Shown one piece after another: positions 984 to 51,305 of a stretch of 64,000 nt of DNA. The notes beneath the pieces were generated by a model. It was not told the origin of the DNA. It saw only the letters and a program-made list of their open reading frames with translations, and did not search any database. Source of the DNA: Candidatus Elulimicrobiales bacterium (lineage in GTDB: Bacteria > Patescibacteriota > Minisyncoccia > Phycocordibacterales > UBA5272). The stretch lies in contig JAYFPW010000006.1 in assembly GCA_034927475.1 (NCBI GenBank), positions 9,197-73,196 on the forward strand, written 5' to 3'. Every line of letters starts with the position of its first letter. Positions within the stretch are counted from its first letter, which is position 1. The position numbers were made by a program, and so were the translations under genes.

Positions 984-3368
984 ATGATTATTTTTGATCT
1001 GTGTGATAAAATATATTTACTTAACAATCGTTTATTATCAAGTATGAAAAATTATAAAAGCACAAAAAACTATGTCAGAGAAGAAGAGGACACTTCTCTG
1101 TTTTCCGAAGAAGATCCATTTTCTTTTTCAAGAAAAAAGAAAAAGAAAATAAACACAAACTCAAAAAAGAGGAAAAAAATGATTCATCGTTGGGTAAAGA
1201 ATCTATTTTTTATTTTTATCTCACTCTTATTGATTGGTATAACAGCTATAGCTATATACATATCTACTGTAAATATTCCAGATTTTTCTAATTTTGCAAA
1301 CAGAAAAATTGATAACTCCACTCAAATCTATGATAAAACTGGAAAAATTTTACTTTACGATGTTCATGGTGAAGTAAAAAGAACCCAAGTTTCTTCTGCT
1401 GAAATTTCTAAATTTTCTAAAGATGCTACTGTTGCTATTGAGGACAAATACTTTTATGAACATAAAGGTGTAAGACCAACCTCAATTATAAGAGCGATGA
1501 TAGCTAACTTGAAAGCTGGATCTTTTGTACAAGGAGGTTCAACAATCGATCAACAAGTTATAAAAAACGCTCTTTTAACTAGAGAAAAAAGTATTATTCG
1601 TAAAATCACAGAGTGGGCAATGGCTATTAAATTAGACTCTCAGGTCTCTAAAGATGATATTTTAACTATTTATTTGAATGATGCTGCTTTTGGGGGAACA
1701 ATTTATGGTATTCAAACGGCTTCAAAATTCTTTTTTAATAAAGACGCAAAAGATATAACTTTAGCTGAAGCTGCTTATTTAGCAGCCTTACCAAACGCTC
1801 CTTCTTACTATTCTCCTTACGGAACTCATATTGATGAACTAGAAGAAAGAAAAAACTTGATTCTAAAACTAATGCTTGAACAAGAAAAAATTAACGAACA
1901 GCAATACAATGAAGCAAAATCTGAAAAAGTTATTTGGCAAAAAAATAGTGAGAATGGAAAAGCTATGCATTTTGTATTTTATGTAAGAGATTATCTTGAA
2001 AAAAAATATGGAAAAGATGTGGTTGATAAAGGTGGTTTGAAAGTTGTGACCACTCTTGATTATGAATTACAATCTCAAGGAGAAACTATTGTTAATAAAT
2101 ACGCTTTAGAGAACGCTCAAAAATATCACGCAACAAACGCAGCTTTAGTAGCTATCGATCCTAGAACAGGGCAGATTTTGACAATGGTGGGCTCTAGAGA
2201 TTATTTTGAAGTTGATGCAATTCCTGGAAACTTTAATGTTGCTACAGCTCCAAGACAACCTGGCTCCGCTTTTAAACCTATTGTGTATGCTACCGCCTTT
2301 ATGGAAGGATACACACCGGAGACTGTACTTTTTGATGTTCCAACACAATTTAGTACAACCTGTTCTTATGACGGAACTCCTCTTCCAGGATATTCTGCAA
2401 ATAGTTGTTATACTCCTAGCAACTACGACGGTTCTTTTAGAGGTCCGGTTACTATGAGAGAAGCTTTGGCTCAGTCTTTAAATATTCCAGCAGTTAAAGC
2501 TTTATATTTGGTTGGTGTAAAAAATGCTATTTCTACAGCTCAAAAACTTGGTATTACCAGTTTAAACACAAACGGTGATTATGGTCTTTCTTTGGTGCTT
2601 GGTTCTGGAGAAACTTCCCTTTTACAACTAACCAATGCTTATGGGGTTTTTGCAAATGGAGGAATTTATAATCCCCCAGCTTTTATATTGTCTATTACAG
2701 ATCTTGATGGTAATGTTCTTGAAGAATATAAACAAAATAATGCTAGTGTAATACCTAGTTTTGTAGCTAGTTATATAAACAGTGTTCTTTCTGATAATAA
2801 TGCTCGCGCTCCACTTTATGGATACAGTTCAGGGTTGTATTTTCCAGGTAAGGCTGTAGCTGCAAAAACAGGTACTACAAACGAATATAGAGATACTTGG
2901 ACTATTGGATACTCTCCCTCTGTTGTGGTCGGTGTCTGGGCAGGAAATAATGACAACAGCAGAATTAATAAAGGAATGTCTGGAATGGTGGCTGTACCTA
3001 TGTGGAATGAGTTTATGCGCTATGCTGTAAAAGACGAAACAGCTTCTTCTTTTAAAGATGGCTATCAGCCAGCTGATTTAGCTATTAAAAATACAAACCC
3101 TCCAACCAAAGGACTTTATTGTTATACTGAAAATGGTTTAAATTATAGTTACTCTATTCTAAATCAAAATGACTCTCAGTATGAACTCTGGAAAATTCCT
3201 TCAGATTTATGGATGCAAAGTACTTTTTGCCCATTTACAAACACAATGAATGGTACAAGCACAGACCCGAATTCATCTTCTACCGAAATAGTTATCCTGG
3301 TACAAGATCCGAACAACCCAACCGTTCCTCCTGTTATCATACCAACCACAACTCTTCAAACTAACTAG
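984..3368 (+). CDS. Class A penicillin-binding protein (bifunctional glycosyltransferase/transpeptidase, PBP1A-like)
   Basis: GT51 motifs (GGSTIDQQV, RKITEWAMA), transpeptidase SxxK (GSAFKP), KTGT (AAKTGTT), and an N-terminal TM helix. A likely alternative start is ATG 1179 (MIHRW...) preceded by an AAGAGGA RBS. The 65 aa upstream of it are a K-rich basic tail. Confidence 0.85.
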   Translation: MIIFDLCDKIYLLNNRLLSSMKNYKSTKNYVREEEDTSLFSEEDPFSFSRKKKKKINTNSKKRKKMIHRWVKNLFFIFISLLLIGITAIAIYISTVNIPDFSNFANRKIDNSTQIYDKTGKILLYDVHGEVKRTQVSSAEISKFSKDATVAIEDKYFYEHKGVRPTSIIRAMIANLKAGSFVQGGSTIDQQVIKNALLTREKSIIRKITEWAMAIKLDSQVSKDDILTIYLNDAAFGGTIYGIQTASKFFFNKDAKDITLAEAAYLAALPNAPSYYSPYGTHIDELEERKNLILKLMLEQEKINEQQYNEAKSEKVIWQKNSENGKAMHFVFYVRDYLEKKYGKDVVDKGGLKVVTTLDYELQSQGETIVNKYALENAQKYHATNAALVAIDPRTGQILTMVGSRDYFEVDAIPGNFNVATAPRQPGSAFKPIVYATAFMEGYTPETVLFDVPTQFSTTCSYDGTPLPGYSANSCYTPSNYDGSFRGPVTMREALAQSLNIPAVKALYLVGVKNAISTAQKLGITSLNTNGDYGLSLVLGSGETSLLQLTNAYGVFANGGIYNPPAFILSITDLDGNVLEEYKQNNASVIPSFVASYINSVLSDNNARAPLYGYSSGLYFPGKAVAAKTGTTNEYRDTWTIGYSPSVVVGVWAGNNDNSRINKGMSGMVAVPMWNEFMRYAVKDETASSFKDGYQPADLAIKNTNPPTKGLYCYTENGLNYSYSILNQNDSQYELWKIPSDLWMQSTFCPFTNTMNGTSTDPNSSSTEIVILVQDPNNPTVPPVIIPTTTLQTN

Positions 3369-7210: not shown

Positions 7211-7966
7211 ATGTTTAACACATTTTTTTTAGCACCGGTTTATAATGTTGTGGTTTTCTTTTTAAACCTTTTTCCTTCTCACGATATAGGTGTGGCTATT
7301 ATTCTTACAACAATCGCAATTAAGATCATTCTGTTGAAATTAAATCTGTCCTCTCAAAGAAGTGCATATTTAATTAAAGATGCACAAACAGAACTTGCTG
7401 AAATTAAAAAGAAATATGAAGGTGATAGTAAAAAAATAGCCGAAGAAACAATGAGGATTTATAAAGAGAAAAAAATTAAACCTTTTTCTAGTATTTTGGT
7501 TGTTTTAATACAGATTCCAATATTTTTCGCTTTGTTTTATGTTTTTAGAGATGGTGGTGTAACTTTAAGACCTGATTTAATATATTCTTTTAATAATTTC
7601 CCTGAAACAGTAAAAAATTTAGCTTTTGGTTTTATGAATTTGTCCCAAAAATATATTTGGGTAGGAGTTTTGACTGGAATCACAATGTTTATTCTTTCCA
7701 AAAGACAAAGTTTAGGATTAGCAAAAACAAAGGATGATAAAAAGACAACAAATAAAAAAGAAGATTTCCAAGCCGTCTTTTCTAAAACAATGCAAATGCA
7801 AATGACTTATTTCTTGCCAGTAATTTCTGGAATATCTGCAGCAGTACTCCCTTCTGCTATTGGGGTTTATTGGACAACAAATAATATACTCTCTCTCTTT
7901 CAAGATATTTATATAAAAAGAAAATTAAAAAAAGAAGGAGAAGCAAAAAGAATAGAAAACAAATAA
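7211..7966 (+). CDS. yidC: Membrane protein insertase YidC/Oxa1 (short form)
   Basis: 251 aa, multi-TM, with a K-rich C-terminal tail. Position is conserved after rnpA. Confidence 0.85.
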   Translation: MFNTFFLAPVYNVVVFFLNLFPSHDIGVAIILTTIAIKIILLKLNLSSQRSAYLIKDAQTELAEIKKKYEGDSKKIAEETMRIYKEKKIKPFSSILVVLIQIPIFFALFYVFRDGGVTLRPDLIYSFNNFPETVKNLAFGFMNLSQKYIWVGVLTGITMFILSKRQSLGLAKTKDDKKTTNKKEDFQAVFSKTMQMQMTYFLPVISGISAAVLPSAIGVYWTTNNILSLFQDIYIKRKLKKEGEAKRIENK

Positions 7967-7968
7967 CA

Positions 7969-9384
7969 TTAATCTCCTCCAGAATATAATATATTATCTA
8001 TGTTTAAAGTCCAAAGAGAACCGTCATTTTTATTTATAAAACCAAGATGGGATTTATAGGAGTTTATATTTAAATTTTTAGCATCAATAATATCTTCAAC
8101 TTGACCGTCTTTTTTAATATCAAACAAAAGTTTTCCATTTGGATAATCACTACTCATTACATAGAAATTGTCTTCCCAAGTGGTCATACCTTGATACCAA
8201 GCATCAGGTAAACCAGTATCATAGTTAATAATTTCTTTTGGTACAGAGCAAATTAAAAGTTGACCATTTGAGGCATTATTTTGTACACATTTATTAGCTA
8301 AAGTTGTGAAATTTAATGAAACTAAATCGTTGTCAGTGAAAGGTGTACTATTAAAGGTTGTGTTTTTATAAAGCTTTATCCCGGAGCCTGTAAAAATAGA
8401 TGTCAATAAATTATTGTTTTCTATTAAAAAGAACATTCCATTATGGTCTCCGTAAAGTTGAGAAAGGTCACCTAAAATATTTTTATGGATATTTACTTTA
8501 TAGAGCGTGTTATTTTCATATGCTGTATCAGTTGTTTGAGCAAAAAGATCACCAATATTAGAAAGAATTAATTTCCAAGAAGAAAGATCGGAGCTATAAA
8601 CTCTTCTACCATAAGAGTCATTTACGTCTTCTAATAAATACCAGTCTGTATAAGTATCGTCCTTTCCGCCAGTTTTTTTATTTTTTTGAACTATATAAGC
8701 TAAACGTGTATTGTTTTGAGAAGTTGTAATATTTTTTATATTATCCGGAAGAGTTGAAGAGTTCATTAAATTCGCAGTAGAGCCATAATATGTAGGTATT
8801 GTAGCACTCACAGTTTTTATTGTATTATCAGCATTTAAATATTGGAAAAATACTCTATTTTTATAACCTCCTTTTTCATTCATAAAGTAAGCTTTTACTG
8901 TATTTGGAAAAGGGGTAATCGTTACTTGATATGGACTAGAAGTTGGAGCAAGTAAATCTTTTTCATAAACAAAACCAGTTTCACTATCAACAAATTGCAG
9001 AATAGTTTTTGTAGAAGTGGCGTCTTGCTCGATACCGTCGATATCGATATATTTATAAGTAAACAGCTTATCATAAAAATTGTACCCAGCCACAGGTTTA
9101 TCCCAAATTTTTATTAAACCCTCAAAATAATAATCATGAGCAATATTTTCATCAAGATTGTTTCCGTCTGTGTCATCCCCCTTATTGTCACCAGTAAAAA
9201 AACTCAAAAGATTTTTAAAATTAAAAGCTGGTTTACCAGATAAGTCTTGCATGTTTTGAGAAGAATTTGTTTTATTTCTTAAAAAAAGAAAATAAAATAG
9301 TGAACCAAAAACGAAGATAGCAATAATAACGATAACTATTTCTTTTTTATATTTTTTAAAAAATGATTGTTTTTTAGGTTCCAT
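7969..9384 (-). CDS. Membrane-anchored extracellular protein (last gene of T4SS-like operon)
   Basis: 471 aa. It has an N-terminal TM (IVIVIIAIFVFGSLFYFLFL) followed by a large N/T/S-rich ectodomain. It is 4 bp from the upstream gene. Confidence 0.5.
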   Translation of the reverse strand: MEPKKQSFFKKYKKEIVIVIIAIFVFGSLFYFLFLRNKTNSSQNMQDLSGKPAFNFKNLLSFFTGDNKGDDTDGNNLDENIAHDYYFEGLIKIWDKPVAGYNFYDKLFTYKYIDIDGIEQDATSTKTILQFVDSETGFVYEKDLLAPTSSPYQVTITPFPNTVKAYFMNEKGGYKNRVFFQYLNADNTIKTVSATIPTYYGSTANLMNSSTLPDNIKNITTSQNNTRLAYIVQKNKKTGGKDDTYTDWYLLEDVNDSYGRRVYSSDLSSWKLILSNIGDLFAQTTDTAYENNTLYKVNIHKNILGDLSQLYGDHNGMFFLIENNNLLTSIFTGSGIKLYKNTTFNSTPFTDNDLVSLNFTTLANKCVQNNASNGQLLICSVPKEIINYDTGLPDAWYQGMTTWEDNFYVMSSDYPNGKLLFDIKKDGQVEDIIDAKNLNINSYKSHLGFINKNDGSLWTLNIDNILYSGGD

Positions 9385-9388
9385 AAGG

Positions 9389-10888
9389 CTATTTTCCAGT
9401 TAGTGACCAATGAACATTATCAGTTGTTCCTAGTTTATTATAAAAACCCCATCTACCACCATTTTCTTTAAGCCATAAAAATTCTTTTGTATTACAAGCT
9501 CCCACCTTTCCGCAACCTCCTATACTTGCATTTGTTAGATCTATCGCGGTACCATTTGAATGATTCGAACCGTTTCCGCCCATACTACAAGGTGTAGCCA
9601 CAGCACTCTTTCCTTTCATTTGATTATATAAACAAACTTGGGCGGCATCATCTCTATATCCAACATAAGCTTCTAATTTTATATTGGCCTCTGACAATGC
9701 AGCTGCTTGCATTTCTTTAAATTTTTGAGCAACGTCTTTTCTTAAATAGATTGGTCCAGCGGGAACACAACCACCATCTCTTTTTGTACCAACTTGTTCT
9801 AATTGATCATTTGTTAAGGCTACACAACCACCTTTACCACCATTGCTTGAAAAAAGCGACATACTTTCTGCTAATTCTTTCTGATATTCCACACAATATT
9901 GTGGAGCTGCTAAATTTGCTAAACGAGAACATCTTCCACCAACCTGACCACAATATCTACTATCCACAATTTCTCTAGCTACTCCCATATAATCTCCCAC
10001 ATCTAAGGCTTTTTTAAGATTTACAAAGCTAGATATACCACCAGACCCCATATTAAAAGTCATATTAATTAAAACGTTTTGGATATTTTCAGGGTGTTCA
10101 CTGAATCTTGATTGTCCTCCAGCAAAAGCTATAGCCATTTGTTTATGTGACTCAAAATCAGCCTCTAAAAGCTTTTTAATGTGCCTTTCTTCAATGGTTA
10201 CAGTTCTGTCGTAATTAAGAAGTTTGTTTACAGTATCCTCAGGTATTTCAGCTCTAAGTAAGTCGTTTTTAACAGTAGCCGCATCCGCTCTTTTTAAATT
10301 AAAACCAACTCCAATACTAGGGTTTCCTGTCGTGTCTGTGTAGATACTATTTCTGCTACCTTCGTCCTGCATGAGCATATCCATAATATTATTTGGACTT
10401 TTATATTTATCATTAGGATTACAAGTTTCAGTGTTAGGAGACATTCTTCTTAATGCGGTATTTGCGTATTTTGTCGCCAAGGTCCAACCTGTTAATTTAG
10501 GGTTGATAAAAGATAAAATCGCATAAGAGAAAATAAAAATTATTAAAGCTATTCCTGCATTTTGTATAAAACTCCTACCTTTTGTTTGTTGATAAATATT
10601 ATCTAAAGTTCCTTTTATAACAGCTCCTTGTATTACACGAAAAACAATTAAAACTATAATAACTACAGCCAAAATAGTTAAAAGATAATTCATTGTACTA
10701 GAAATTCCTCCTGTGTCAGTGTTGTCAAAGGTGGTAGAACTAGATGTACCATCAAAAGAAGAAACATAGTCATAGGTTTCCTGTCTAGAATAAACATCGG
10801 TTTGGTCCTGGCTTTGATTTTGAGAAAAAGAAATATTAAAAGAAAAGAGTGTAAAAATCAAAAAGAAAAAAACAAAAAACTTTTTCAT
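9389..10888 (-). CDS. Bifunctional cell-wall hydrolase: GH24 (T4-type) lysozyme domain + M15/VanY-type D-Ala-D-Ala peptidase domain; VirB1/PrgK-like role
   Basis: Signal peptide plus TM helices. The MLMQDEGSRNSIYTDTTGNPSIGVGF motif matches the T4 lysozyme catalytic E...D...T motif, and VLINMTFNMGSGGISSF matches ALINMVFQMGETGVAGF. The C-terminus has the SNHSNGTAIDL (SxHxxGxAxD) and ...VHW motifs of zinc D,D-carboxypeptidases. Confidence 0.7.
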   Translation of the reverse strand: MKKFFVFFFLIFTLFSFNISFSQNQSQDQTDVYSRQETYDYVSSFDGTSSSTTFDNTDTGGISSTMNYLLTILAVVIIVLIVFRVIQGAVIKGTLDNIYQQTKGRSFIQNAGIALIIFIFSYAILSFINPKLTGWTLATKYANTALRRMSPNTETCNPNDKYKSPNNIMDMLMQDEGSRNSIYTDTTGNPSIGVGFNLKRADAATVKNDLLRAEIPEDTVNKLLNYDRTVTIEERHIKKLLEADFESHKQMAIAFAGGQSRFSEHPENIQNVLINMTFNMGSGGISSFVNLKKALDVGDYMGVAREIVDSRYCGQVGGRCSRLANLAAPQYCVEYQKELAESMSLFSSNGGKGGCVALTNDQLEQVGTKRDGGCVPAGPIYLRKDVAQKFKEMQAAALSEANIKLEAYVGYRDDAAQVCLYNQMKGKSAVATPCSMGGNGSNHSNGTAIDLTNASIGGCGKVGACNTKEFLWLKENGGRWGFYNKLGTTDNVHWSLTGK

Positions 10889-10917
10889 ATATGACTATAT
10901 TTTAACACAAGAATAAG

Positions 10918-11688
10918 CTAATTTTGCTTCAATAGAAAATTTAAAAGAGTTTCCCCTTTTTGTAAAAGTTTAGAATCGTTAGTTATTGTTAAACCTATAC
11001 CAAAATCTCCATAAGCTGTCACTGGTGCTCTATAATCAAAAACATTGGAGCGGTTTATGTTGCCAGGAATACCATTTAAAGACCATGTATAGCTTAAATT
11101 TTCATCTCTAGGAGATTTGGCTGAGAAGAAATATGGTTCTGCTAAAATCTCAAGAGACTCACCTCTATTAACCGCATAATGTTCATATTTTTTATTTAAA
11201 GCGTTGGAGTAAGTAATAATAGGGCTAGAGCTTTTTTTATACAAAATAGGTGTAATTTTTTTAGGATAAATTCTAATAATTTTCTCAGCTAGAAGATTTT
11301 CTTGTCTATTATTTTCATAAACTTTTAACCTGATAACATTCTCAGTTTTTAAAGGATCAAGAGTAATATAAATAATATTTCCTCCAGTTTTTGAATAGTT
11401 GTGCACATAATAGTCATTATATGTCCAAGCGTAAAAGAGTTTACTTTTATCCAAAACTCCAACAGGGGTAAAAATTTCTGCGTCAGCAATAGCTTTTATA
11501 TCGGCTTGTTCAGCTGCCAAACTCTTACCTTCATAAAAAGGAGGTGTATAACTATTTAAAACTTCCCAATCTATAGTGACTTTAGAAGAGATAGTATATA
11601 CCTGTGCTTTTATTATTGAAAAAGTGGCTATAAATAAGAAAGTAAATACTAAAAACAAAAAAGAGAAATATCTTTTATTTTTTTTCAT
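10918..11688 (-). CDS. Secreted hypothetical protein (T4SS-like operon)
   Basis: 256 aa with an N-terminal signal/anchor (FSFLFLVFTFLFIATFSIIKA). It is co-operonic. Confidence 0.5.
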   Translation of the reverse strand: MKKNKRYFSFLFLVFTFLFIATFSIIKAQVYTISSKVTIDWEVLNSYTPPFYEGKSLAAEQADIKAIADAEIFTPVGVLDKSKLFYAWTYNDYYVHNYSKTGGNIIYITLDPLKTENVIRLKVYENNRQENLLAEKIIRIYPKKITPILYKKSSSPIITYSNALNKKYEHYAVNRGESLEILAEPYFFSAKSPRDENLSYTWSLNGIPGNINRSNVFDYRAPVTAYGDFGIGLTITNDSKLLQKGETLLNFLLKQN

Positions 11689-11707
11689 TAAATATATTAT
11701 ATCAGAA

Positions 11708-13540
11708 TTATGCGGCCCGTTGTCTTTTTTTCTTAGCTTCCAAAAGCTGTGCCGGATTAGTTGTAACTATTTGATCTTCAACATAAGAAGAAATAACTTT
11801 TATAGCCACATGTTTTTGCCCAGCAAAGAATATTCCTTCCCCTACTCCAGAACTAAGTAATAAATACTTTTCTTCATCTGTAAGATTAAAAGTTTTTTGG
11901 ACCAGATCTATACTAGAAGGAGATTGTTTTAAAAGTAAAAGCATACTTGAGTTAGTAATAATAGGTAAACCGTAAGCTGAACGCAAAAAGTCTCCTACGT
12001 CTTGAGAAATTACAGACAAACCTAAATAATATTTTCTTCCCCTTTTTGCCATTCCAAACAAAAAGGATGCAGTGTCTTCATTTTTCATCATTATCCAAGC
12101 CTCGTCTATAATTAAAAGCCTTTTCTTTAACTCTTTTCTAATCTCTCCCCAAATATAATGAGTAATAATATACATAGCGACAGGCTTAAGCTCATCCTCC
12201 ATGTCACGAATAGAAAAACAGATTAATTTTTTATTAATATCAATATTAGAAGGTTGCCCAATAAATCCTGACCAGACCCCTTCTGTATATTTAGAAAGTC
12301 TTTGTAAAACACTTTCAGATCCCTCAATACCAGAAAGTACTTCAGCAAAATCTCCTAAGACAGGAAATTCTATACCATCTAAACTTTCGGTTGCCGAGGT
12401 TATATCTTTTATCGCATAAGTTTCTGTTAAAGCTCTATCGACAATAGAATCCTCTTCAGGAGTAAGTCCGCCAAGCATTACTCGCATGAGCCCTACCAAG
12501 TGAATAATATTACTTCTCAAAACATCACCAACAGATTCATCTTCTCCGGGTATTGCTAAATCGAAAGGATTAATGTGATGATCTGAATTTAAAGATATAT
12601 TAAAATATCTACCACCAACAGATTCCGCTAAATATTCATACTCTCTTTCAGGGTCGATGATAATAACATTGGTATCAAACATTAAAGTACGTAAAATTTC
12701 AAGTTTTGTGTAATAAGATTTACCAGATCCAGAAGTAGCAAAAACCATACTGTTGTAGTTCTCAAGAGAAAATCTATCAAATAAAATTAAAGAGCCATTA
12801 TGTCTATTTAAACCATATAAAATACCACTATTTGTTGAAAGGTCGAAAGAAAGAAATGGAAAGAAAGAAGAAAGTGGAGAAGTATTTAGCTGAGTAGTGA
12901 TTTTTATTTCATCTACACAAAAAGGCATTATAGTTTTTAAAGCTTCAGCTTGCTGAAAGAGAGCTGGTCTTAAATAAATAAGCTTACTTTCTAAAATATT
13001 TTTAATTTCAGTTTCTACTTTTTTTAATTCATCATCGGTATCTCCAAAAATCGTAATATAAAGACCAACTTCAAACATCTTTTCACTGGATTGTTGAAGA
13101 GAGTCTCTCAAGTCTTCCAGGTCTCTTAAAGCTGTTTCTAATTTTGGATCACGAACTTCACCTTTTTCTTGCTTTACATAAATTTGACTCTCTATTTCTA
13201 CCACTTTCTTTTGAAATTTTTTCATCATTTCAGCTGTAGCTAAAGGGGTGATATGAATAGAAACATTAAAAATTTTGTCTAGATTAATAATTGGGGCCAA
13301 CCAAGAATCATCTAAATATCTAGGATAAGATATAACAAAAAAACTTTTAGCTAATTTTCCAGAAAGATTTAATTGTTGTGCGTCGACTTTTAAGCCGGCT
13401 GGAGCTATAAAATTTTTCAATTCTGAACTAGCCTCATCATAAACTTCTTCTTTAGAAGGTTCTTCATTTAAATTTTGTTTATTATTTTTTGAAAAAATAT
13501 CTAAAATACCCATAGCTTTATAATTTTTTTGTATTAACAT
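11708..13540 (-). CDS. virB4: VirB4/TrbE/CagE-family T4SS ATPase (C-terminal ATPase part)
   Basis: Walker A FATSGSGKSYY, Walker B LLIIDEAWIMM, and the motif GRKYYLGLSVISQDVGDF. Confidence 0.85.
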   Translation of the reverse strand: MLIQKNYKAMGILDIFSKNNKQNLNEEPSKEEVYDEASSELKNFIAPAGLKVDAQQLNLSGKLAKSFFVISYPRYLDDSWLAPIINLDKIFNVSIHITPLATAEMMKKFQKKVVEIESQIYVKQEKGEVRDPKLETALRDLEDLRDSLQQSSEKMFEVGLYITIFGDTDDELKKVETEIKNILESKLIYLRPALFQQAEALKTIMPFCVDEIKITTQLNTSPLSSFFPFLSFDLSTNSGILYGLNRHNGSLILFDRFSLENYNSMVFATSGSGKSYYTKLEILRTLMFDTNVIIIDPEREYEYLAESVGGRYFNISLNSDHHINPFDLAIPGEDESVGDVLRSNIIHLVGLMRVMLGGLTPEEDSIVDRALTETYAIKDITSATESLDGIEFPVLGDFAEVLSGIEGSESVLQRLSKYTEGVWSGFIGQPSNIDINKKLICFSIRDMEDELKPVAMYIITHYIWGEIRKELKKRLLIIDEAWIMMKNEDTASFLFGMAKRGRKYYLGLSVISQDVGDFLRSAYGLPIITNSSMLLLLKQSPSSIDLVQKTFNLTDEEKYLLLSSGVGEGIFFAGQKHVAIKVISSYVEDQIVTTNPAQLLEAKKKRQRAA

Positions 13541-14105
13541 CTAACTCATTTGGATTAAATAATTTATAAAATAGTCCAACAATTTCTTCCGTGTCTATCA
13601 GTTTTAATTTTAATCCTAAAGCGGTAAGTCCGCTAACCACAATAGAAACTCTTTGCATTAATTGATTTTCATTTTTTATAAAATCCATTTCATTCATTCT
13701 TTTTGTATTTCCAACAAGTGTTGGAATATCATAAGGAACAACTATGTAAAAATTTTTCGTCATAATATTTTGTTCCTCAGTAAATTTTTGTATAAAATCC
13801 GTATATTCTTTTATTTGAATCTTTAAAAGCTCTTCAGAAGCCTCTCTTTCCCTCTCCTTTAAACTTTTTATATAATCACGAATGTCAATTTTTTTAGATT
13901 GAACAAAAATTTGAACATTAAAATCCAAAGAGTTTAAAAAGCTTTGAAAAGCGGTAATAATTCCCATTTGTTCATCCTCACTTTTTAAAGACAAGTTTAA
14001 AGAAGTGGTCGAAAGAATAGCTCTCATGTTGCCACTATTTAAAATAATCACCCCGCTTCTAATTTCTCTAATTGGGACAAAATTTTGAGAAGAGTTTTTT
14101 GCCAT
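13518..14105 (-). CDS. VirB4 N-terminal domain encoded as a separate ORF (overlaps ATPase ORF by 23 nt, different frame)
   Basis: 195 aa resembling the N-terminal region of VirB4/TraC proteins (IPIREIRSGVIILNSG..., SLKSEDEQ...FQSFLNSL). Together with 11708-13540 it sums to ~800 aa, the normal VirB4 length. Confidence 0.55.
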   Translation of the reverse strand: MAKNSSQNFVPIREIRSGVIILNSGNMRAILSTTSLNLSLKSEDEQMGIITAFQSFLNSLDFNVQIFVQSKKIDIRDYIKSLKEREREASEELLKIQIKEYTDFIQKFTEEQNIMTKNFYIVVPYDIPTLVGNTKRMNEMDFIKNENQLMQRVSIVVSGLTALGLKLKLIDTEEIVGLFYKLFNPNELDVNTKKL

Positions 14106-14134: not shown

Positions 14135-14614
14135 CTAAGAATTTTTTGTCTGATTTCTTTTAATAAGTTCTTCTCTTAAATTGACAGCGTGTTTTTTATC
14201 TTCGTCTAAAATATCTAATTTTCCAGACAACTCTCTAATTTTATCAAAAGGACTTTTTTCTTCCTCAATTTTATTTTTCTTTAAAAGATCGATAGCTCTT
14301 AAGTCTTTTTTAGGCTCTTCTTTTTCGATTTTTTTCTCTTGATACCAAACATAAGTTTTGTTTCCAATTAAAAATTTATAAGCTGATTCTAAAATGTCAG
14401 CAAAAGGTCTATTATTTATTTTGACAAAAGCTAGAGCCACAAAAGTTCCAGAAAAAATAAGAATTAAAGGCACAGCTATAATTTTTGCAGGAATAATTCT
14501 CCAAAAAAGATATCCAAAAGCTATAGCCCCCAACAGATACCCAAATTGTTTGAGAGTAAAAGGACCAAAAATCTTATCTTCAATGTCCAAGAATTGAGGA
14601 AGTCTAAATTGCAT
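14135..14614 (-). CDS. PrgI-family / VirB3-like small membrane protein
   Basis: 159 aa with LPQFLDIEDKIFGPFTLKQFGYLLG followed by two TM helices. It sits immediately upstream of VirB4, as in Gram-positive T4SS. Confidence 0.55.
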   Translation of the reverse strand: MQFRLPQFLDIEDKIFGPFTLKQFGYLLGAIAFGYLFWRIIPAKIIAVPLILIFSGTFVALAFVKINNRPFADILESAYKFLIGNKTYVWYQEKKIEKEEPKKDLRAIDLLKKNKIEEEKSPFDKIRELSGKLDILDEDKKHAVNLREELIKRNQTKNS

Positions 14615-14644: not shown

Positions 14645-15781
14645 CTAAAAAGCTTCTCTATAGGGATCAAAATTTTCATCAACACTTTCTGGAATCTCTT
14701 CAGACAAAGTACTTTTATAATAGTCATTATTTTTAGCTTTTTGAATTTCTATCTCCTCTTTCTCTCTTTGTTGTCTTAAGGTATCTAAATTTGTTTTCTC
14801 ATCCTCATTTGCAGACAGCTTCTCTTTTAAGTTTTCGACAAGTATTTGACTGAAATCTTCATTTTTGAGAGCTAAAGGATTTTCTTCTGGATATTCTAAT
14901 TCTTCTTCAATTTCCTTTCTCTTAGTCTCCTCTTCTTTTTCTTTGTTTCTTATTTCAGCAACCCTTTCTTCCTCTCTTTTTTCTTTAGCTAAAACTCTTT
15001 GCATTCTTTCATCTTCCTCTCTTTTAATTTGAATCATTCTTTCTTTTATTTTATCCGTATCAGACACATTCTGCATATTTATTTTTGCCAACAAAGAATC
15101 TCTATTCATTTCTTGAACCTTTTTTTCTTCTTCTTTCTTTTTTTCTTCCTCTTTAATAAGCTCTTGTTCAGTCTTCTCTCTTTCTTTATACTGAATTAGA
15201 GGTTCCCCTTTGCCAGTTATAGTACCAGTTCTTTGTAGAAGAATTTTTCTTAGCTCTTCTTTTTCAGCTTCTTCCCTTTTTTCTTTTAAAGTAAGATGTC
15301 TTATTTCTCTTTTGTTTTCAAGTTTACTTTCTAAAATATTTTTACGAATATCAGTAAGAATATAAGTGTCTATACTTTTCAAAATCGAACTTGCTGTAAA
15401 AGATTCCAGCATGATACCGCTAGAGCTAAAACTTTCAACCAGAGTTTCTTTGGCTTCATTAATAGGAAGAAGCCCAACTAAAATTGAAACAGCAATATTT
15501 TCAACAATAACTCTCGCTTTTTCTCCTTCTAATTTTTCTATTTTGCAAATCAAGCGAACACTCTCTTCAAGCTTGTCTCCTAAAATATAGTCTTGTATCA
15601 CTTTTGAAGAATTTGAAAAAGCGGTATCAAATTGAGTAAGGACAATATTTTCATTTTTTTGTGGAGGTTTTTCAGGTTCCTTTTCAGGATTTAAAAAATC
15701 ATAGTCAAAGTCAGCCTCCGTTTCATTTAAAGAATAATCGCCCTCTTTTAGTTCTAAAGCTAATTTATTTTCTTCCGACAT
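14645..15781 (-). CDS. Glu/Lys-rich coiled-coil protein (T4SS-like operon)
   Basis: 378 aa, acidic N-terminus and a long charged coiled-coil region. No catalytic motifs. Confidence 0.5.
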   Translation of the reverse strand: MSEENKLALELKEGDYSLNETEADFDYDFLNPEKEPEKPPQKNENIVLTQFDTAFSNSSKVIQDYILGDKLEESVRLICKIEKLEGEKARVIVENIAVSILVGLLPINEAKETLVESFSSSGIMLESFTASSILKSIDTYILTDIRKNILESKLENKREIRHLTLKEKREEAEKEELRKILLQRTGTITGKGEPLIQYKEREKTEQELIKEEEKKKEEEKKVQEMNRDSLLAKINMQNVSDTDKIKERMIQIKREEDERMQRVLAKEKREEERVAEIRNKEKEEETKRKEIEEELEYPEENPLALKNEDFSQILVENLKEKLSANEDEKTNLDTLRQQREKEEIEIQKAKNNDYYKSTLSEEIPESVDENFDPYREAF

Positions 15782-15815: not shown

Positions 15816-18659
15816 TTAAGAGGCGTTTTTTAGAGGTTCCTCAGGTGTCATATTTTTAGTTTTTGTATTAGTATTTTCTCCAGTTTTTTCTCGTAAGTGT
15901 TCAATAATTCTTTTTTTACTTGCAAAATTTGCTTGCTTAAATTCATCTCCAAACTGTTGCTCATTATTGTCTAGTATTTCCCTTACAGTATTACTTTGAA
16001 TAGTTTTTGGAGCTTCTGCTGTACTTTTTGTGCCACCACGATTTACTACGACAACTTCAGGTTTGCTAGAAGTTTTTTTCTCTTTAATATCAGAGCTCTC
16101 TTTTTTTTCTTTTCCCAGTTTTGATTTTCTCTCCAATCTCTCCCTTTCTCTTTCAGATACTCTAAAGTCTGCTAAAACTTTGGAAAGGCTCATATAGGCT
16201 TCTCTCGGATTGAGTTCTTTTAATGCATTTAAGAATTCAGTTTTTAATTTTTCGTTTTCAGGTTTTTCTAGATTTTGTGAAAAATAGTTCTCTCCTTTAC
16301 CTTCTTTTAGAAATTCTTTATCTATAGAAGCTTTTATCTCTTCTTCTTTGTTTTTCATACTCTCAGCACCTGTGCCAGGGTTATCTTTAAAAGTTTGATT
16401 AACATCCTGGAGGAGGTTTTGGGATTTTTTATCTCCAAATAAATCTTTTTCTAATTCCCCTTTCCTCTTTTCTGAATTTCCTAGTACAGTATTCCAGTGC
16501 TTTTTATCAGACTCAGAAATATCTTTTTCGCTTAATTTTTTTCTAGCATAAGCTATATCAGACTGAACTGTACGCAACTCCGATTTCTTTTGTACATTTT
16601 CTTCCAAAGCTTGTTTGTTAGGATTTTTCTTTCCAATATTTCTTGCGTCAAACGAAGAGGTGCTTAATGTCCTGTCAAGCTGACGTCCTCCAGCGGCTAA
16701 TATTTGATTTACACGCTTAGTTCCATCTTCATTTTTTCTTATCCAACCTTGGAATTTGTCCGAATTTGATACAGCTGTAGCTCCACGTCTCATAACAGCC
16801 CCCGTGGTACCAAGTGCAAAATTACCTACAAAGCCACCTACTTTTCCAGCGACTTGACCACCAAGATCAGAACTCATTTTTTTAGAAACTGTAATAGCTA
16901 ATTGTAAAACTACTATAATAATTGCGGAAGCCACACTAGCCCCCATAAAAGTATTTCCTGCTTCACCAGCTCCAGCCATACCAGTAGAAAGTGAATTTAA
17001 TTGAGGATTATTTTGTAAAGAATCTCTAATGGCAGCACCTATTTGTAAAGCTATCAAAACTATAAACATAAAAATCGGAGCAGAGATTACAGAAGTGGTA
17101 AAGCTTTTAATTACCATGTCTCTATATTTATCAATATATTCATTTATACCAGCAGGTAAAAGCATTAATGGAGAAAAAATTAAAACTAGAAGTAAAATTA
17201 TGGCTCGCATAAGTAGTAGAACCATACCTTGAACCAACACGAGAACAGCTACACCATTAATAACTATTTTTATGGCTTGGAATAAAGTAAAACCCCAATC
17301 AGCTCTAGCTGCTCCCAAAGATCTAGTATCGATAGCTAAAACATCAGCCAAAGCATCACCCAAAGTTTCTCCAGGATTATGCATACTTCTATAAATATAA
17401 ATAGAAAGAACGTTTGTTTGATCTATAATCCAGCCAACAATAGCAAAAGAGAAATATACAAATAGAGCTGTAATTAAAATTCTTGGAAGTATTTTTTTAA
17501 TTTTAGAAGTGTCATTATCAATAAGCATTCTAATAAGCATGTAAAACACTATAGGCAGAAGTAGGGATGTTACTAAAGATAAAATAACATTCCTCCAAAC
17601 TAAATAAGCATTTGAATTAACTACCCAGTCATTAAAATTGTAAATACTAAAACGGACAACCCAGTCAAAAATTCCACCAACAAGTTTTGTTAGTCCTTGT
17701 AGTAAAGAATTTATTCCTTCTAAAACTAGATTTACTAAATAAGCCGCAACAGAACAGTTTGGACTTTGCATAACACCCCAAAGACCTGTCGCCTCACAAA
17801 CAGTTGGGGTTTCGTAAGATTCCACCATAACTTCCCCTGAAGGGTTAGTTATAGGACTAGAGGGATTAGTTTTAGGTCCCCCACTAGTTTCTGTTGGGAC
17901 AAAAAAGGTTTCTCCTTTATAAGGAAACTCTGCACCAGTTTTTTCGGCGTCGCTCAAAGTCTTTTTATCTTCACCTCCCAACCAATTCCAACCAGAAGGA
18001 TTTTCGGTTTGATTTTTTATTTCATTTGCAATATCTTTAATACCTTGAGGTATTTTTTCTAACTCTAACACAGTCCGGCCTTCTGTAAGAAAGTCATTAA
18101 TTTCTCTATATATATAGATACGCATTAATTTTGCTGAAGCCCCATCAACATCACCCTCAACAAAGTTATTGGAGACAGCCGAATTTTTCATTTTATTATA
18201 AATAGATAAATAGCTATTGTTGTGAATAGTTTTTGCCTGGTCAAATATCTCTAATAAATATTTTTTAGCCTCAGGGTAAGACGTGGAATCTACAGCATCT
18301 AATTGGTTTTTATATCCAGTAAATAATGAGTCGTATTTAGAAGAGTTATCTGTCTCATTTTTTTTAATTTTCTCTTCAACTTGATTTTGAATAGAAAGAA
18401 GATCTGATGATGGTATTGGTATGTAATCAGTAGAGTATGAGCCAGCACCAAAACTTCCACCTGGAATATATGTGCTTTCTACTTTATAAGATGTTGTTGC
18501 CGTCATCAAAACAGACGTGTCTTTATTGTCTAACTTTATTCCAACAACTATTTTGGCTTCCGTGTTTTTTATACCTAAACTAAAAAATCCTAGAACTATA
18601 AATAAAATAATTCCAAGTGTTTTTGTGGAGAAAATAGAAGAAAACTTTTTCCTTTTCAT
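15816..18659 (-). CDS. VirB6/TrbL-like polytopic membrane protein with large N-terminal ectodomain and charged C-terminal extension
   Basis: 947 aa. It has a signal/TM, a ~400 aa extracellular region, a central block of >=6 TM helices (VILSLVTSLLLPIVFYMLIRML ... AIILLLVLIFSPLMLLPAG ...), and a K/E-rich ~300 aa tail. Confidence 0.5.
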   Translation of the reverse strand: MKRKKFSSIFSTKTLGIILFIVLGFFSLGIKNTEAKIVVGIKLDNKDTSVLMTATTSYKVESTYIPGGSFGAGSYSTDYIPIPSSDLLSIQNQVEEKIKKNETDNSSKYDSLFTGYKNQLDAVDSTSYPEAKKYLLEIFDQAKTIHNNSYLSIYNKMKNSAVSNNFVEGDVDGASAKLMRIYIYREINDFLTEGRTVLELEKIPQGIKDIANEIKNQTENPSGWNWLGGEDKKTLSDAEKTGAEFPYKGETFFVPTETSGGPKTNPSSPITNPSGEVMVESYETPTVCEATGLWGVMQSPNCSVAAYLVNLVLEGINSLLQGLTKLVGGIFDWVVRFSIYNFNDWVVNSNAYLVWRNVILSLVTSLLLPIVFYMLIRMLIDNDTSKIKKILPRILITALFVYFSFAIVGWIIDQTNVLSIYIYRSMHNPGETLGDALADVLAIDTRSLGAARADWGFTLFQAIKIVINGVAVLVLVQGMVLLLMRAIILLLVLIFSPLMLLPAGINEYIDKYRDMVIKSFTTSVISAPIFMFIVLIALQIGAAIRDSLQNNPQLNSLSTGMAGAGEAGNTFMGASVASAIIIVVLQLAITVSKKMSSDLGGQVAGKVGGFVGNFALGTTGAVMRRGATAVSNSDKFQGWIRKNEDGTKRVNQILAAGGRQLDRTLSTSSFDARNIGKKNPNKQALEENVQKKSELRTVQSDIAYARKKLSEKDISESDKKHWNTVLGNSEKRKGELEKDLFGDKKSQNLLQDVNQTFKDNPGTGAESMKNKEEEIKASIDKEFLKEGKGENYFSQNLEKPENEKLKTEFLNALKELNPREAYMSLSKVLADFRVSERERERLERKSKLGKEKKESSDIKEKKTSSKPEVVVVNRGGTKSTAEAPKTIQSNTVREILDNNEQQFGDEFKQANFASKKRIIEHLREKTGENTNTKTKNMTPEEPLKNAS

Positions 18660-18731: not shown

Positions 18732-21143
18732 TTATTCAGCTGCACACTCTTTAATTGCTGAGGTTATTGCGGCTTGAATAGAAGTTTCGTCTTTACAGTG
18801 ATTTCTAAGTTCAAGGTCGTCAGTATTAGCTGACTGGGCACAAATATTTCTGATTGAAATTTCCGGAGATATACAAGGGTCTGGCTGGCCTTCTAGTGGA
18901 TCTGGAATTGGTTCATTATAATCTTTCAAGGAATCAGTAAGTATTTGTAGTTCTGCATTATTACAAATACCAATCTTTAGTTGGTTACAATAAGACAGTT
19001 CAGAAAAAGTTTTTGAGCTGCTAGAGTCTATCACAGCAGTATTTTTTGCGGAAGGTCTTGGTAAATTTGGATCCAAATACTCTAGATTTTTAATACCATA
19101 AGCTGAAAACATTCCTGTATCTTTTGCTGGAATTGTTGAAGGAGATCCCGCCTTTAAAGAATCTCTTAACATTAAGTATGCCCTAACTCTTAAGTACCCT
19201 AAAACGTGTTTTGTATAAGGTCCTTCCACTTCTCTTCTTGATGGAACATAATAGGAAGCGTCTTCTTCTATTGCTGCAACAGGGTCAGAAGTTAGTTCGG
19301 AGTATTCTGGAATATATTGCCAATCGGAGATAAGATATTCATAATCTTTTTCTGTATAAGCCCCATCCAAAGCTTGCGCTAAAGCTTCTTGATTATTTTG
19401 CGTATCAACATCTTTTGTGTCTCTTAAATCCATTAAAAGTTTTCTCATTTGTTGTTCGCGATAATTATTTTTTGCCATTTCTTTGATGAGATCTCTTGTT
19501 TCCATTGTTTGATTTACCAAAGCTACAGTTAATTTTTTTGCAGCGTCCGTCTTATTTGTAGCAGATTTTCGAATATTTTTACTTTTTCTAGGATAGAAAA
19601 TACTTTTCCAAAAACCTACATTCATAGCATCCTGTTGAGCATTTACGACGGCTGTTTTAGCTCTTTCTACAGAAGTTTTTAATACTAAGTAAGTATATGA
19701 ATTAGTGTTTAACCTTTCAGTATTTACTATTCTTATATTTTCATAAATATCTAAAGCTCTTTGCAAGTCATCTGAAGAATATTTTTCTGAACCAAAAGCA
19801 TACTCTCTTGAAGCTTCTTCTGTGCTAACCCAAAGAAGATTTTGAGTGTCTTGGGTTTTTTGTAAAGCACCTAGAGATGTTGCTAGTCCACTATAAGGGT
19901 TGTCATAAGGATTATTTGTCACGGCATAAATATCTTTTCTACCAACATTTATTATTGAGGAGATTAAGTTCATTGTATCAGCAGCGCCAGTAAGATCTCC
20001 ATTTTTTAATTTATTATGAATAGAGTCTAGTCTGGCTTTTATACTATCGTAAGGTGCGTTTGCAGCAGCGGAAACTTTTTCTTGCAAAACAGCACCACTT
20101 CCTTGAGCTGTAGAGGTTTGTTGAGAGCAGAATTGTGTAGCGTCTTCAGGGTTAAATTTTACCTCTTTACCATCTTTATCTACACATTTTTGGTCCCCTA
20201 AAAACATTCCTGTAGCTTCAGTTTGTTTTGATGTAGCGTCAACGACTTTATCTTTTTGGGCTAAAATATTAGAGATAGCTAAGTTAACAACCCCTGAAGG
20301 TGTGTTAGCTGGATTAGCAAGAGCTTCACTGGTTCTTGGTCCTCCATAGCCAGCGTTAGCTAAACCAATAAATACAGCTTGAGCTCTAGCGGCTTCTTTT
20401 TGTGGTTTTTGTAAACTAGTATTACATAATTTATCTATATCTACATCACCAACTGCTTTTTTTGGGCGAGCAAAAGTTTCTGGTTCTCCATTTTTTATTA
20501 TATTTTTTAATTCAGGACTATTACAAATTTCATCTTTTACTATATAAGGCAAACTAAAGTTTACGACTTTTCCTAAAGCTGTATCTGAAGTATTTTTTGT
20601 AAAATCAGCAATGTCTTTATAGATGTCTGCTGTGTATGGAGTCGTGTTTACCGTAAGTTGTATATTAGATAGACCCTTTTTAATTTCATTTACAGAAATC
20701 ATGTCTAAATAATTTCCAAAATTAGTTACAACTTGCTGACCTTGTGTATAAATGTTTGTAGCCTGATCTCTGGTTATTCCTAAATTAGTCATAACTGCAT
20801 CGCCGACACGATTAAGGACATCGCTAGAAGCATTTTTTGCAAAAGTCTCTGCGTCAAAATTTTTTATTCCTTGCACAAGTTGTTTTGCCGCTAAAGTGTT
20901 TTGGTAAATAACCATACTGTCATTTATAAGCTCTTTAGCTTGAACAGCTTTATCTGCTATCCATTTTGCTGTATCTTGACCAAAAATAGCCCCGAGTATT
21001 ACATCTCCAGTATCTCCTACACCTAAAAAAGCAGAAGCTTTTTTAGGTAATAAGCTAGGAGTCAAAAACGAAAAAATTAAAATCAGAGCCAATATTTTTT
21101 TAGAAATTTGTTTTATATTTATCATATTTTTATTTTTAGTCAT
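18732..21143 (-). CDS. Large secreted protein (candidate surface/pilus-associated component of T4SS-like system)
   Basis: 803 aa with a signal peptide (ILALILIFSFLTPSLLPKKASA) and a Cys-rich C-terminal ~80 aa. No enzymatic motif. Confidence 0.5.
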   Translation of the reverse strand: MTKNKNMINIKQISKKILALILIFSFLTPSLLPKKASAFLGVGDTGDVILGAIFGQDTAKWIADKAVQAKELINDSMVIYQNTLAAKQLVQGIKNFDAETFAKNASSDVLNRVGDAVMTNLGITRDQATNIYTQGQQVVTNFGNYLDMISVNEIKKGLSNIQLTVNTTPYTADIYKDIADFTKNTSDTALGKVVNFSLPYIVKDEICNSPELKNIIKNGEPETFARPKKAVGDVDIDKLCNTSLQKPQKEAARAQAVFIGLANAGYGGPRTSEALANPANTPSGVVNLAISNILAQKDKVVDATSKQTEATGMFLGDQKCVDKDGKEVKFNPEDATQFCSQQTSTAQGSGAVLQEKVSAAANAPYDSIKARLDSIHNKLKNGDLTGAADTMNLISSIINVGRKDIYAVTNNPYDNPYSGLATSLGALQKTQDTQNLLWVSTEEASREYAFGSEKYSSDDLQRALDIYENIRIVNTERLNTNSYTYLVLKTSVERAKTAVVNAQQDAMNVGFWKSIFYPRKSKNIRKSATNKTDAAKKLTVALVNQTMETRDLIKEMAKNNYREQQMRKLLMDLRDTKDVDTQNNQEALAQALDGAYTEKDYEYLISDWQYIPEYSELTSDPVAAIEEDASYYVPSRREVEGPYTKHVLGYLRVRAYLMLRDSLKAGSPSTIPAKDTGMFSAYGIKNLEYLDPNLPRPSAKNTAVIDSSSSKTFSELSYCNQLKIGICNNAELQILTDSLKDYNEPIPDPLEGQPDPCISPEISIRNICAQSANTDDLELRNHCKDETSIQAAITSAIKECAAE

Positions 21144-22022
21144 TTATCTCATTTTTACATTAAATTCATTAAAATAATTAAAGAATAAAAGAGCGGTATT
21201 GGAAAGTTCTTTTTGGAAATCTTCAGCAAAAAGATCCCCGTTAATTAGAATATATTTAGCTGGGTCAGCATCTATTTGCTGAATAGAGTTATAGTAAGCT
21301 ATATCTTTTGAAATTAAATTTATTAACTCGAGTTGATATGTTGCTCCTCTTTCTGTAGCTGGAATAGAAATTAAATTATTAATTAAAGTGTTGTTTATGT
21401 TTATATTCTTTTGCATCATATTTTTCATTTCTTCCCAAAGAGAAAGGAACGTATTTTCGTCTATAGAGGTTGCGTTAGAATATGAAGAGAAAGGGTTTTT
21501 GGGTAGCTTATTTAATTCTTGTCCATATATTTGAAAAGTATTATAAATATCGTCATAATACTCTTGTAAACTCTCTTTATTTTCTTCGCGGATAATATTT
21601 AAATTATCTAAAGTGTATTTTTTGCCTACAAGTTGTTCTTGATAATTAAAAATAATATCAGCCAAGATTTTTCCTCTAGCTGTAGGATCAGTCATTCCGT
21701 TTTGTTCTAAATAAAGATTAGTTAAATATAGAGATCTAGATAAATCTTCAGTTAAATTTGCATCAGTATTATTTGTATAATCTTTCCCCTCTTCTACAGT
21801 AGGGTTTAGGTTAATACCATAATCGGAAGCAATTTTTTGTATATCTAAATAGAATTTTCCATCTTTTTTCACATTCCCATACTTTGAATAGGAATTTGAA
21901 GTTAATATAATCATAACTATTGCCGCAATAACCCCTAAAGCATATAAATATATTTTTATATCTACTTTAGAAAGCTTGTCTCGCAAGTTATTCCAAAAAA
22001 CAGCAAGATTTTCATTTTTCAT
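21144..22022 (-). CDS. Bitopic membrane protein (first gene of T4SS-like operon; possibly VirB8-like)
   Basis: 292 aa with a single N-terminal TM (IYLYALGVIAAIVMIILT). The stop and start abut the next gene. Confidence 0.45.
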   Translation of the reverse strand: MKNENLAVFWNNLRDKLSKVDIKIYLYALGVIAAIVMIILTSNSYSKYGNVKKDGKFYLDIQKIASDYGINLNPTVEEGKDYTNNTDANLTEDLSRSLYLTNLYLEQNGMTDPTARGKILADIIFNYQEQLVGKKYTLDNLNIIREENKESLQEYYDDIYNTFQIYGQELNKLPKNPFSSYSNATSIDENTFLSLWEEMKNMMQKNININNTLINNLISIPATERGATYQLELINLISKDIAYYNSIQQIDADPAKYILINGDLFAEDFQKELSNTALLFFNYFNEFNVKMR

Positions 22023-34181: not shown

Positions 34182-34209
34182 ATTTTTGTTGTTAAATTTA
34201 TAATAAAGA

Positions 34210-50967: not shown

Positions 50968-51017
50968 CATAGTTAAGAGTTTATTGCTATTTTTTTGATT
51001 TTTATTATAATTATTAT

Positions 51018-51300: not shown

Positions 51301-51305
51301 AATAT

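Follow-up and report, generated by a model that had tools for sequence, protein, structure and literature searches.

A GH24 lysozyme and M15 peptidase fusion behind a VirB2-like pilin module, a probable cell-wall hydrolase of a chromosomal type IV secretion system in Patescibacteria

The DNA analysed here, a chromosomal stretch of 64,000 nt with ~30% G+C (contig JAYFPW010000006.1, positions 9,197 to 73,196; hereafter the window), comes from a bacterium of the Patescibacteria. On its minus strand lies a gene for a 499-aa protein in which an N-terminal pilin-like module is followed by two catalytic domains predicted to act on peptidoglycan. The gene is part of an operon of a type IV secretion system (T4SS), with 29 nt between it and the stop codon of the upstream gene and 4 nt to the start of the next gene. 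Features of the gene and its product are listed below.

9389..10888, minus strand: hydrolase gene, 499 aa (pilin-like module, GH24 lysozyme and M15 peptidase); open reading frame (ORF) with ATG start, stop codon at 9389-9391
10820..10888, minus strand: predicted Sec signal peptide, residues 1-23 (MKK, hydrophobic core, SFSQ), from hydropathy and an N-terminal layout common to all homologues
10475..10783, minus strand: VirB2-like T4SS pilin module, residues 36-138, from profile searches and hhalign
9899..10393, minus strand: GH24 T4-type lysozyme domain, residues 166-330, from Pfam, PDB sequence matches, family alignment and fold
10361-10363, 10334-10336 and 10316-10318, minus strand: GH24 catalytic residues E176, D185 and S191, from alignment to T4 lysozyme
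9392..9754, minus strand: M15 (VanY/LdcB-like, LAS superfamily) zinc peptidase domain, residues 379-499
9560-9562, 9539-9541 and 9410-9412, minus strand: M15 zinc ligands H443, D450 and H493; the other M15 residues of note are the carboxylate D490 (9419-9421) and R412

Public databases already contain an identical protein under the name 'hypothetical protein SDC9_21718 [bioreactor metagenome]'; the name it has in UniRef, D-alanyl-D-alanine carboxypeptidase, is misleading. Hydropathy analysis gives three hydrophobic stretches, residues 1-23 (the signal peptide), 60-95 and 106-133, in agreement with the original prediction (made from the DNA sequence) of a single membrane-associated protein of 499 aa. 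The segment preceding the first transmembrane (TM) helix is acidic (-6) and the loop between the two helices is basic (+2), a distribution consistent with extracytoplasmic catalytic domains. Of the 10 Cys residues of the protein, C156 is invariant in the family alignment, and C313 and C320 hardly vary.

The GH24 domain is matched by the Pfam family Phage_lysozyme (PF00959) over residues 175-309 (25.5 bits with a cut-off of 22.3, E-value 1.9e-5), and its best sequence matches in the PDB, found by phmmer, are the lysozyme domain of T4 gp5 (2.2e-11) and T4 lysozyme (~1e-8). E176 and D185 align to E11 and D20 of T4 lysozyme and are invariant across an alignment of 15 family members; the position of T26 is occupied by S191, a conservative change, with Ser or Thr in relatives. 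The predicted structure shows the two-lobed fold of T4 lysozyme. The M15 domain is matched by the VanY family (PF02557) over residues 380-485 (49.8 bits with a cut-off of 25, E-value 3.9e-13) and is predicted to have the LAS/Hedgehog-DD-peptidase fold; the same 15-member alignment shows no variation in the zinc ligands H443-x6-D450 and H493 and hardly any at R412.

The original prediction had proposed a GH24 core with an E/D/T triad fused to a zinc D,D-peptidase. Both families stand above their curated Pfam cut-offs, and the Glu and Asp of lysozyme as well as the His and Asp zinc ligands are in place, so that both catalytic domains are real, have intact active-site residues and look active. 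Two details had to be revised. Since Ser191 is found at the T26 position, the triad is E/D/S, not E/D/T. As for the peptidase, the zinc motif set stands, while D,D specificity is neither shown nor suggested by comparison with characterized enzymes. Among solved structures, the closest in sequence are 4JID, 4MPH and 4OX3, followed by the L-Ala-D-Glu peptidase Ply500; these three structures are LdcB LD-carboxypeptidases (PMC4087270). D490 stands three residues ahead of H493, and this D-x-x-H arrangement is shared with EndoT5, an M15_C L-Ala-D-Glu endopeptidase (D130/H133; PMC10487532), and with L-Ala-D-Glu peptidases of the Ply500 type, whereas LdcB and VanX have E-x-x-H; the LdcB equivalent of D490 is thus Glu (E204/H207). 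The NCBIfam model of VanY-A/F/M (NF000472) gives the domain 30.8 bits, far below its cut-off of 425, which argues against VanY proper. Within the hydrolase family itself two M15 types occupy the same slot, a majority type (SNH..G.A.D...D-x-[VI]-H) and an LdcB-like type (S[PM]HQLG.AID...E-x-W-H), so both the Asp and the Glu form of the carboxylate before the last zinc His occur. The claim that the protein cuts both glycan and peptide bonds was likewise worded too strongly, and we would say that it is predicted to do so.

The N-terminal part, a membrane segment for the original prediction, is by profile comparison a divergent VirB2-like T4SS pilin module. Its elements follow in the order Y-x-x-V-S-S-F-D-G motif, TM1 (~66-85), a basic loop QGAVIKGT.DNIY.Q.KG, TM2 (~109-129) and an INP.LTGW motif. 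We used a profile of residues 36-138 (alignment A2) in a search of 1.84 billion representative proteins and obtained 31 core clusters and ~90 weak matches. The proteins of this weak tail (P0043-P0131, n = 89; alignment A3) were scanned by Pfam; 72 of the 89 belonged to PF18895 T4SS_pilin (best E-value 1e-27) and 4 of the 89 to PF04956 TrbC/VirB2. A hidden Markov model built from the tail proteins only matched residues 3-156 of the 499-aa protein with an E-value of 6.8e-28, and nothing else in the window. An hhalign comparison of the pilin module with A3 gave 99.5% probability (E-value 3e-22, 96 columns), a figure which is partly circular as A3 was collected with A2; the aligned columns span the N-terminal motif, TM1, the basic GK loop, TM2 and the INP.L motif.

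The pilin link emerged only via this exhaustive profile search. Direct Pfam scanning of the N-terminal 160 residues returned sub-threshold noise (PF18895 at 8.5 bits with a threshold of 26.6, E-value 2.8), and hhalign of the pilin module with a single PF18895 sequence, the N-terminus of P0023, gave 6% probability. Among the 31 core-family members, 2 were matched by PF18895 directly with an E-value of 1.9e-4; the match of the relative P0020 had an E-value of 0.087. In a survey of 2025 the inclusion criterion for PF18895 was an i-E-value below 0.001 (PMC12102498); with its E-value of 2.8 the hydrolase family would escape that survey. A search of a library of 7.7 million papers brought up no description of a pilin-hydrolase fusion.

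The module has in common with PF18895 and VirB2-like pilins of Patescibacteria a signal peptide, the N-terminal motif, two TM helices with a basic GK loop between them and INP.L after TM2; it differs in scoring below the Pfam threshold and in belonging to a protein of 499 aa, whereas about half of the remote matches (44 of 89) have no more than 220 aa. Given this VirB2-type layout (signal peptide, acidic external segment, two hydrophobic helices and basic loop), the enzymes would lie outside the membrane. In the predicted model helices 62-95 and 104-128 appear, at low confidence. No paralogue of the module and no ordinary pilin gene was seen, beyond the hydrolase, in the 64-kb window or within +-10 kb of 16 related loci.

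Some of the remote pilin-like proteins are long as well, 45 of the 89 exceeding 220 aa, and single members carry SLT, Amidase_2, NlpC/P60, VanY, YkuD, Tlde1 or fn3 domains; a further protein, P0023, combines PF18895 with VanY. Wall-acting domains at the C-termini of T4SS_pilin proteins may thus be a wider pattern. The 12-kb contig of P0023 contains no T4SS genes, an observation uninformative either way about its T4SS linkage.

The family alignment shows that the anchor is the best conserved part of the protein: mean pairwise identity is 60% in the N-terminal module, 48% in GH24 and 34% in M15, and the N-terminal module is the sole region common to relatives with other enzymes. Behind it we observed GH24 and M15 (the majority), PG_binding_1 with GH24 and M15, PG_binding_1 with GH24 and a C39-like Cys peptidase, SLT with M15, and a middle part without assignment followed by a C39-like peptidase. 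The region-by-region identities are mosaic. With respect to the protein of the window P0005 has 85% identity in the anchor, 66% in GH24 and 25% in M15, while in P0013 the respective values are 41%, 36% and 55%; in locus L006 the VirB4 is 95% identical to that of the window and the peptidase module has no BLAST match to its counterpart. The catalytic modules are thus exchangeable cassettes behind a constant anchor, which, like the pilin module, the original prediction had missed.

One related locus, L016, has a hydrolase in which a middle module with the motif 'RNNNPGNIR' replaces GH24 ahead of the M15 domain. In this locus VirB4 (453 + 134 aa), the hydrolase (196 + 279 aa) and the next gene (truncated) are all broken, the positions concerned being 7265-9088, 9905-11371 and 11378-12142. 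We considered a natural split between pilin module and enzymes and rejected it, as three consecutive broken genes make assembly frameshifts likelier.

The operon surrounding the hydrolase gene consists of the following genes.

7969..9384, minus strand: 471-aa membrane-anchored protein, the last gene of the operon; no Pfam match, 41-78% identical in 12 related loci
10918..11688, minus strand: 256-aa exported protein, between virB4 and the hydrolase gene; no Pfam match, 46-71% identical in 12 related loci
11708..14105, minus strand: split VirB4/TraC-like ATPase, with a 195-aa N-terminal part (13518-14105) and a 610-aa P-loop part (11708-13540)
14135..14614, minus strand: PrgI (VirB3-like), 159 aa; PF12666, 6.6e-11
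14645-15781, minus strand: 378-aa protein; no Pfam match, conserved across loci
15816-18659, minus strand: 947-aa VirB6-like protein, 43% identical (5e-140) to a protein of locus L001 with a match to TrbL_3 (PF19590)
18732-21143, minus strand: 803-aa protein; no Pfam match, conserved across loci
21144-22022, minus strand: 292-aa protein; no Pfam match, outside the flanks compared in related loci

PrgI, the split VirB4/TraC-like ATPase (Pfam matches to P-loop_TraG, 7e-23, and to TraC_F_IV) and the VirB6-like protein, encoded in one operon whose order is conserved, bear out the T4SS-like locus of the original prediction. The division of VirB4 into two genes is seen in every related locus (~195-198 aa and 601-607 aa, the large part being 80-95% identical), and is thus conserved rather than the product of a frameshift; that the two ORFs overlap by 23 nt in the window probably reflects an upstream ATG, since relatives start at the equivalent of Met10 (MGILDIF...). 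On one side the operon is flanked by yidC, rnpA, dnaA, dnaN and a gene for a class A penicillin-binding protein, on the other by ksgA and uvrD. The penicillin-binding protein, encoded at 984-3368, indicates that the organism synthesizes peptidoglycan of its own.

Orthologues of the operon genes were found in 12-13 loci from metagenome-assembled genomes labelled Patescibacteria, Paceibacteria or Parcubacteria, with some Saccharibacteria by automated naming. The order is identical in L001, L003, L005, L006 and L013: VirB6-like protein, 378-aa protein, PrgI, split VirB4, 256-aa protein, hydrolase, 471-aa protein, yidC-rnpA-rpmH and dnaA. The hydrolase is the second gene after virB4, a slot that it keeps in all related loci whose sequence extends far enough for comparison. 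We saw neither a relaxase nor a coupling protein when the operon and the ten largest ORFs elsewhere in the window were examined, the smaller ORFs of the 26-64 kb part having been scanned incompletely. The T4SS of Patescibacteria has been described as a chromosomal, dnaA-proximal and relaxase-less derivative of the monoderm MPF-FATA class (PMC12102498), a description which the operon of the window matches. The 471-, 256-, 378- and 803-aa proteins are kept in all related T4SS loci (41-78% identity); together with the 292-aa protein they are candidate lineage-specific T4SS components.

The fixed slot in a conserved T4SS-like operon makes a wall-hydrolase role in the T4SS the best reading of the gene. 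We consider it probable, with due reserve, that the gene encodes a dedicated cell-wall hydrolase of a chromosomal, non-conjugative T4SS of the monoderm type in a Paceibacteria-like member of the Patescibacteria. The protein would be exported by the Sec pathway and, upon cleavage of the signal peptide, inserted into the cytoplasmic membrane by its VirB2-like hairpin, with the N-terminus out, the basic loop in and the C-terminus out. The hairpin would hold the GH24 muramidase and the M15 zinc peptidase on a tether of ~30 residues outside the membrane, and would probably dock the enzyme at the membrane platform of the T4SS (VirB3/PrgI, VirB4 and the VirB6-like protein). Both domains would cut the producer's own peptidoglycan, glycan strands and stem peptides respectively, only where the channel or pilus passes, a job equal to that of VirB1, PrgK, TraG and CwlT in other T4SSs, with the anchor as the constant part of the enzyme and the catalytic domains as interchangeable cassettes.

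The protein has no Pfam match to SLT, CHAP or NlpC/P60 and we found no homology to VirB1/TrsG/CD419; it would work like VirB1 and yet, as far as sequences tell, is not its homologue. The hydrolase role is supported by relatives that have in the same slot classical VirB1-type modules (SLT in P0020 and P0021) or a C39-like Cys peptidase (P0017 and P0022). It is also known that VirB1 homologues are associated with VirB4 in Paceibacteria (PMC12102498) and that Candidatus Southlakia cannot do without the peptidase and lysozyme homologues encoded downstream of virB4 (PMC10633639, PMC12102498). By analogy with these essential genes, the hydrolase may be required for T4SS function, an indirect argument.

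PrgK of pCF10, TraG of pIP501 and CwlT of ICEBs1 resemble the 499-aa protein in that the gene is situated in a VirB4-containing T4SS cluster and a membrane anchor is followed by glycan- and peptide-cleaving domains; CwlT pairs a muramidase with a DL-endopeptidase. Their domains are SLT, GH73 or LytM combined with CHAP or NlpC/P60, in contrast with GH24 and M15 here; their anchors are simple TM helices or lipoprotein signals, not reported as pilin homologues; and their T4SSs are conjugative and carried by mobile elements, whereas the one of the window is chromosomal and adjacent to oriC. T4SS hydrolases with two activities, glycosidase and peptidase, are standard in monoderms (PMC12102498).

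Two proteins of Candidatus Southlakia epibionticum (Saccharibacteria), SEML1_0007 and SEML1_0006, are encoded directly downstream of virB4 in a Patescibacteria T4SS located beside dnaA. SEML1_0007 has a C-terminal Hedgehog/DD-peptidase (M15-type) fold and SEML1_0006 has lysozyme-like domains; both are essential according to transposon sequencing (PMC10633639, PMC12102498). There the activities are divided between two much larger proteins, of 1113 aa and of 643 aa; the latter combines two lysozyme-like domains, of the PF18013/PF01832 types and not GH24, with a Cys protease. The protein of the window, by contrast, fuses both activities in 499 aa behind a pilin-like module; the likeness is drawn from published descriptions, not from sequence comparison. 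SagA of Brucella abortus, a T4-lysozyme-like muramidase with a Glu/Asp/Thr triad, opens peptidoglycan for the VirB T4SS (PMC8334348). SagA, as well as TtsA of Salmonella, is thus a T4-lysozyme-like muramidase serving a secretion machine; however, SagA is soluble, periplasmic and of single activity, belongs to a diderm, is encoded away from virB, has an inhibitor, PhiA, and lacks both a peptidase domain and a pilin-like anchor. T4 gp5, T4 lysozyme, LdcB, VanY and Ply500 share folds and catalytic residues with one or the other domain, but none of them joins the two.

The core idea of the original prediction is therefore sound and less unusual than claimed. With SagA, SEML1_0006/0007 and the bifunctional PrgK and TraG as precedents, the role itself is not new; what is new here is that GH24 and M15 are fused in this specific way, that the conserved anchor is a VirB2-like pilin module and that catalytic cassettes are exchanged behind it.

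Several observations weigh against the assignment to a dedicated hydrolase of the producer's own wall. The hydrolase and its family are known here from sequence alone. The direct match to T4SS_pilin is not significant (E-value 2.8), and the assignment of the module rests on profile searches with a partly circular hhalign comparison; the module is, moreover, modelled at low confidence (predicted local distance difference test, pLDDT, ~40-60). Among solved structures, the M15 domain is nearest to carboxypeptidases, which trim stem peptides without opening cross-links. Finally, fast replacement of catalytic modules, as in L006, is not obviously expected for an enzyme that meets only its own, presumably constant, wall.

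The last point leads to the main alternative, which we regard as unlikely: the module could be a real pilus subunit (a minor or tip subunit, or one extracted from the membrane by the T4SS), and the filament would then expose or deliver the enzymes so as to breach the wall peptidoglycan of the bacterial host that carries the epibiont. Homology of the module to PF18895 pilins over its whole length would fit, as would the hydrolase being the only pilin-like ORF in the window and around the 16 related loci, though the rest of the genome, beyond the window, could contain stand-alone pilin genes. Swapping of catalytic modules at short evolutionary distance is what one would expect if the wall chemotype of the host varies; still, monoderm T4SS hydrolases that act on the cell's own wall show great variety in domain content too, and the host of this lineage may lack murein. 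Wall-acting domains occur on other PF18895 proteins (SLT, Amidase_2, NlpC/P60, VanY, YkuD and Tlde1), the closest relatives of the GH24 domain are the cell-puncturing lysozymes of the T4 gp5 type, and T4SS pilins of Patescibacteria are essential for epibiotic growth (PMC10633639, PMC12857230). On the other hand, no assembled pilus is known in which a VirB2-type subunit bears a C-terminal load of ~360 residues, and no adjacent immunity-like gene tracks the catalytic modules. A more specific version, a true T4SS pilus subunit with its own lysozyme and peptidase, placed at the filament tip or along it and with cassettes swapped to match the wall chemistry of the host, appears to us quite improbable.

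As to a cognate immunity gene next to the hydrolase, we considered the 256-aa and 471-aa neighbours and rejected them: these genes diverge in step with the operon whichever catalytic modules are present. Neighbours that stay unchanged as the catalytic modules change give no effector-immunity signature.

It is more doubtful still that the gene is that of a housekeeping autolysin or peptidoglycan trimmer, an LdcB-like carboxypeptidase with a muramidase for growth or division, which merely happens to lie beside T4SS genes near oriC. The gene is embedded in the operon, with gaps of 4-29 nt, in the slot already described; its anchor is a homologue of T4SS pilins; and a module swap between species with 95% identical VirB4 would not be expected of such an enzyme.

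The idea of a prophage remnant, in which the chromosome would have acquired an endolysin or tail lysin unrelated to secretion, is effectively refuted. In its favour, phage lysins often contain catalytic domains of either type and the best GH24 matches are phage proteins; against it, the neighbourhood is free of phage genes, a signal peptide and a pilin-like hairpin precede the enzymes, and the chromosomal slot is conserved across divergent species. An origin from a phage endolysin or a plasmid T4SS was rejected as well, as a tblastn search of 50,697 phage and 72,556 plasmid records produced matches to GH24 only, covering no more than 39% of the query, with no full-length match among these records. 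The epithet 'phage-endolysin-like' used in the original prediction suits the domains but not the whole protein.

A large part of the diversity of uncultured bacteria belongs to the Patescibacteria, and in the sole genetically tractable species the chromosomal T4SS is essential for epibiotic growth, with its cargo and the crossing of two walls unexplained (PMC10633639, PMC12102498, PMC12857230). The 499-aa protein links components that published surveys score separately, VirB2-like pilins and VirB1-like hydrolases. If the pilin-like hairpin does recruit the hydrolase to the machine, this would explain how wall lysis is confined locally; if, instead, the hairpin is a filament subunit, it would point to a pilus that breaches the host wall, a concrete mechanism for the essential T4SS of Patescibacteria. 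In either case the exchange of cassettes behind a constant anchor (GH24 or SLT; two M15 types or a C39-like peptidase) is a natural experiment on substrate adaptation and a source of modular lysins.

Several other features of the window are worth mentioning. A match to RNase P RNA at 51017-51305 (plus strand) scores 102.3 in Rfam with a gathering threshold of 100 and covers 289 nt of a model of 367 positions, which suggests a reduced RNase P RNA; it sits within a cluster of three tRNA-Gly genes and one tRNA-Arg gene. At 45629-47920 (minus strand), just before tRNA-Pro, a 763-aa protein with BNR/Asp-box and Sortilin-Vps10-like repeats is encoded, possibly a surface glycan-binding or sialidase-like protein. 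Two adjacent large ORFs of 473 and 447 aa at 32760-35553 (minus strand) have no Pfam family at an E-value of 1e-5 or below. Lastly, ComEC (Competence domain) and a ComM-like ATPase of the Mg-chelatase family, encoded at 56773-58329 (plus strand) and 27334-28893 (minus strand), fit the natural competence reported for Patescibacteria.

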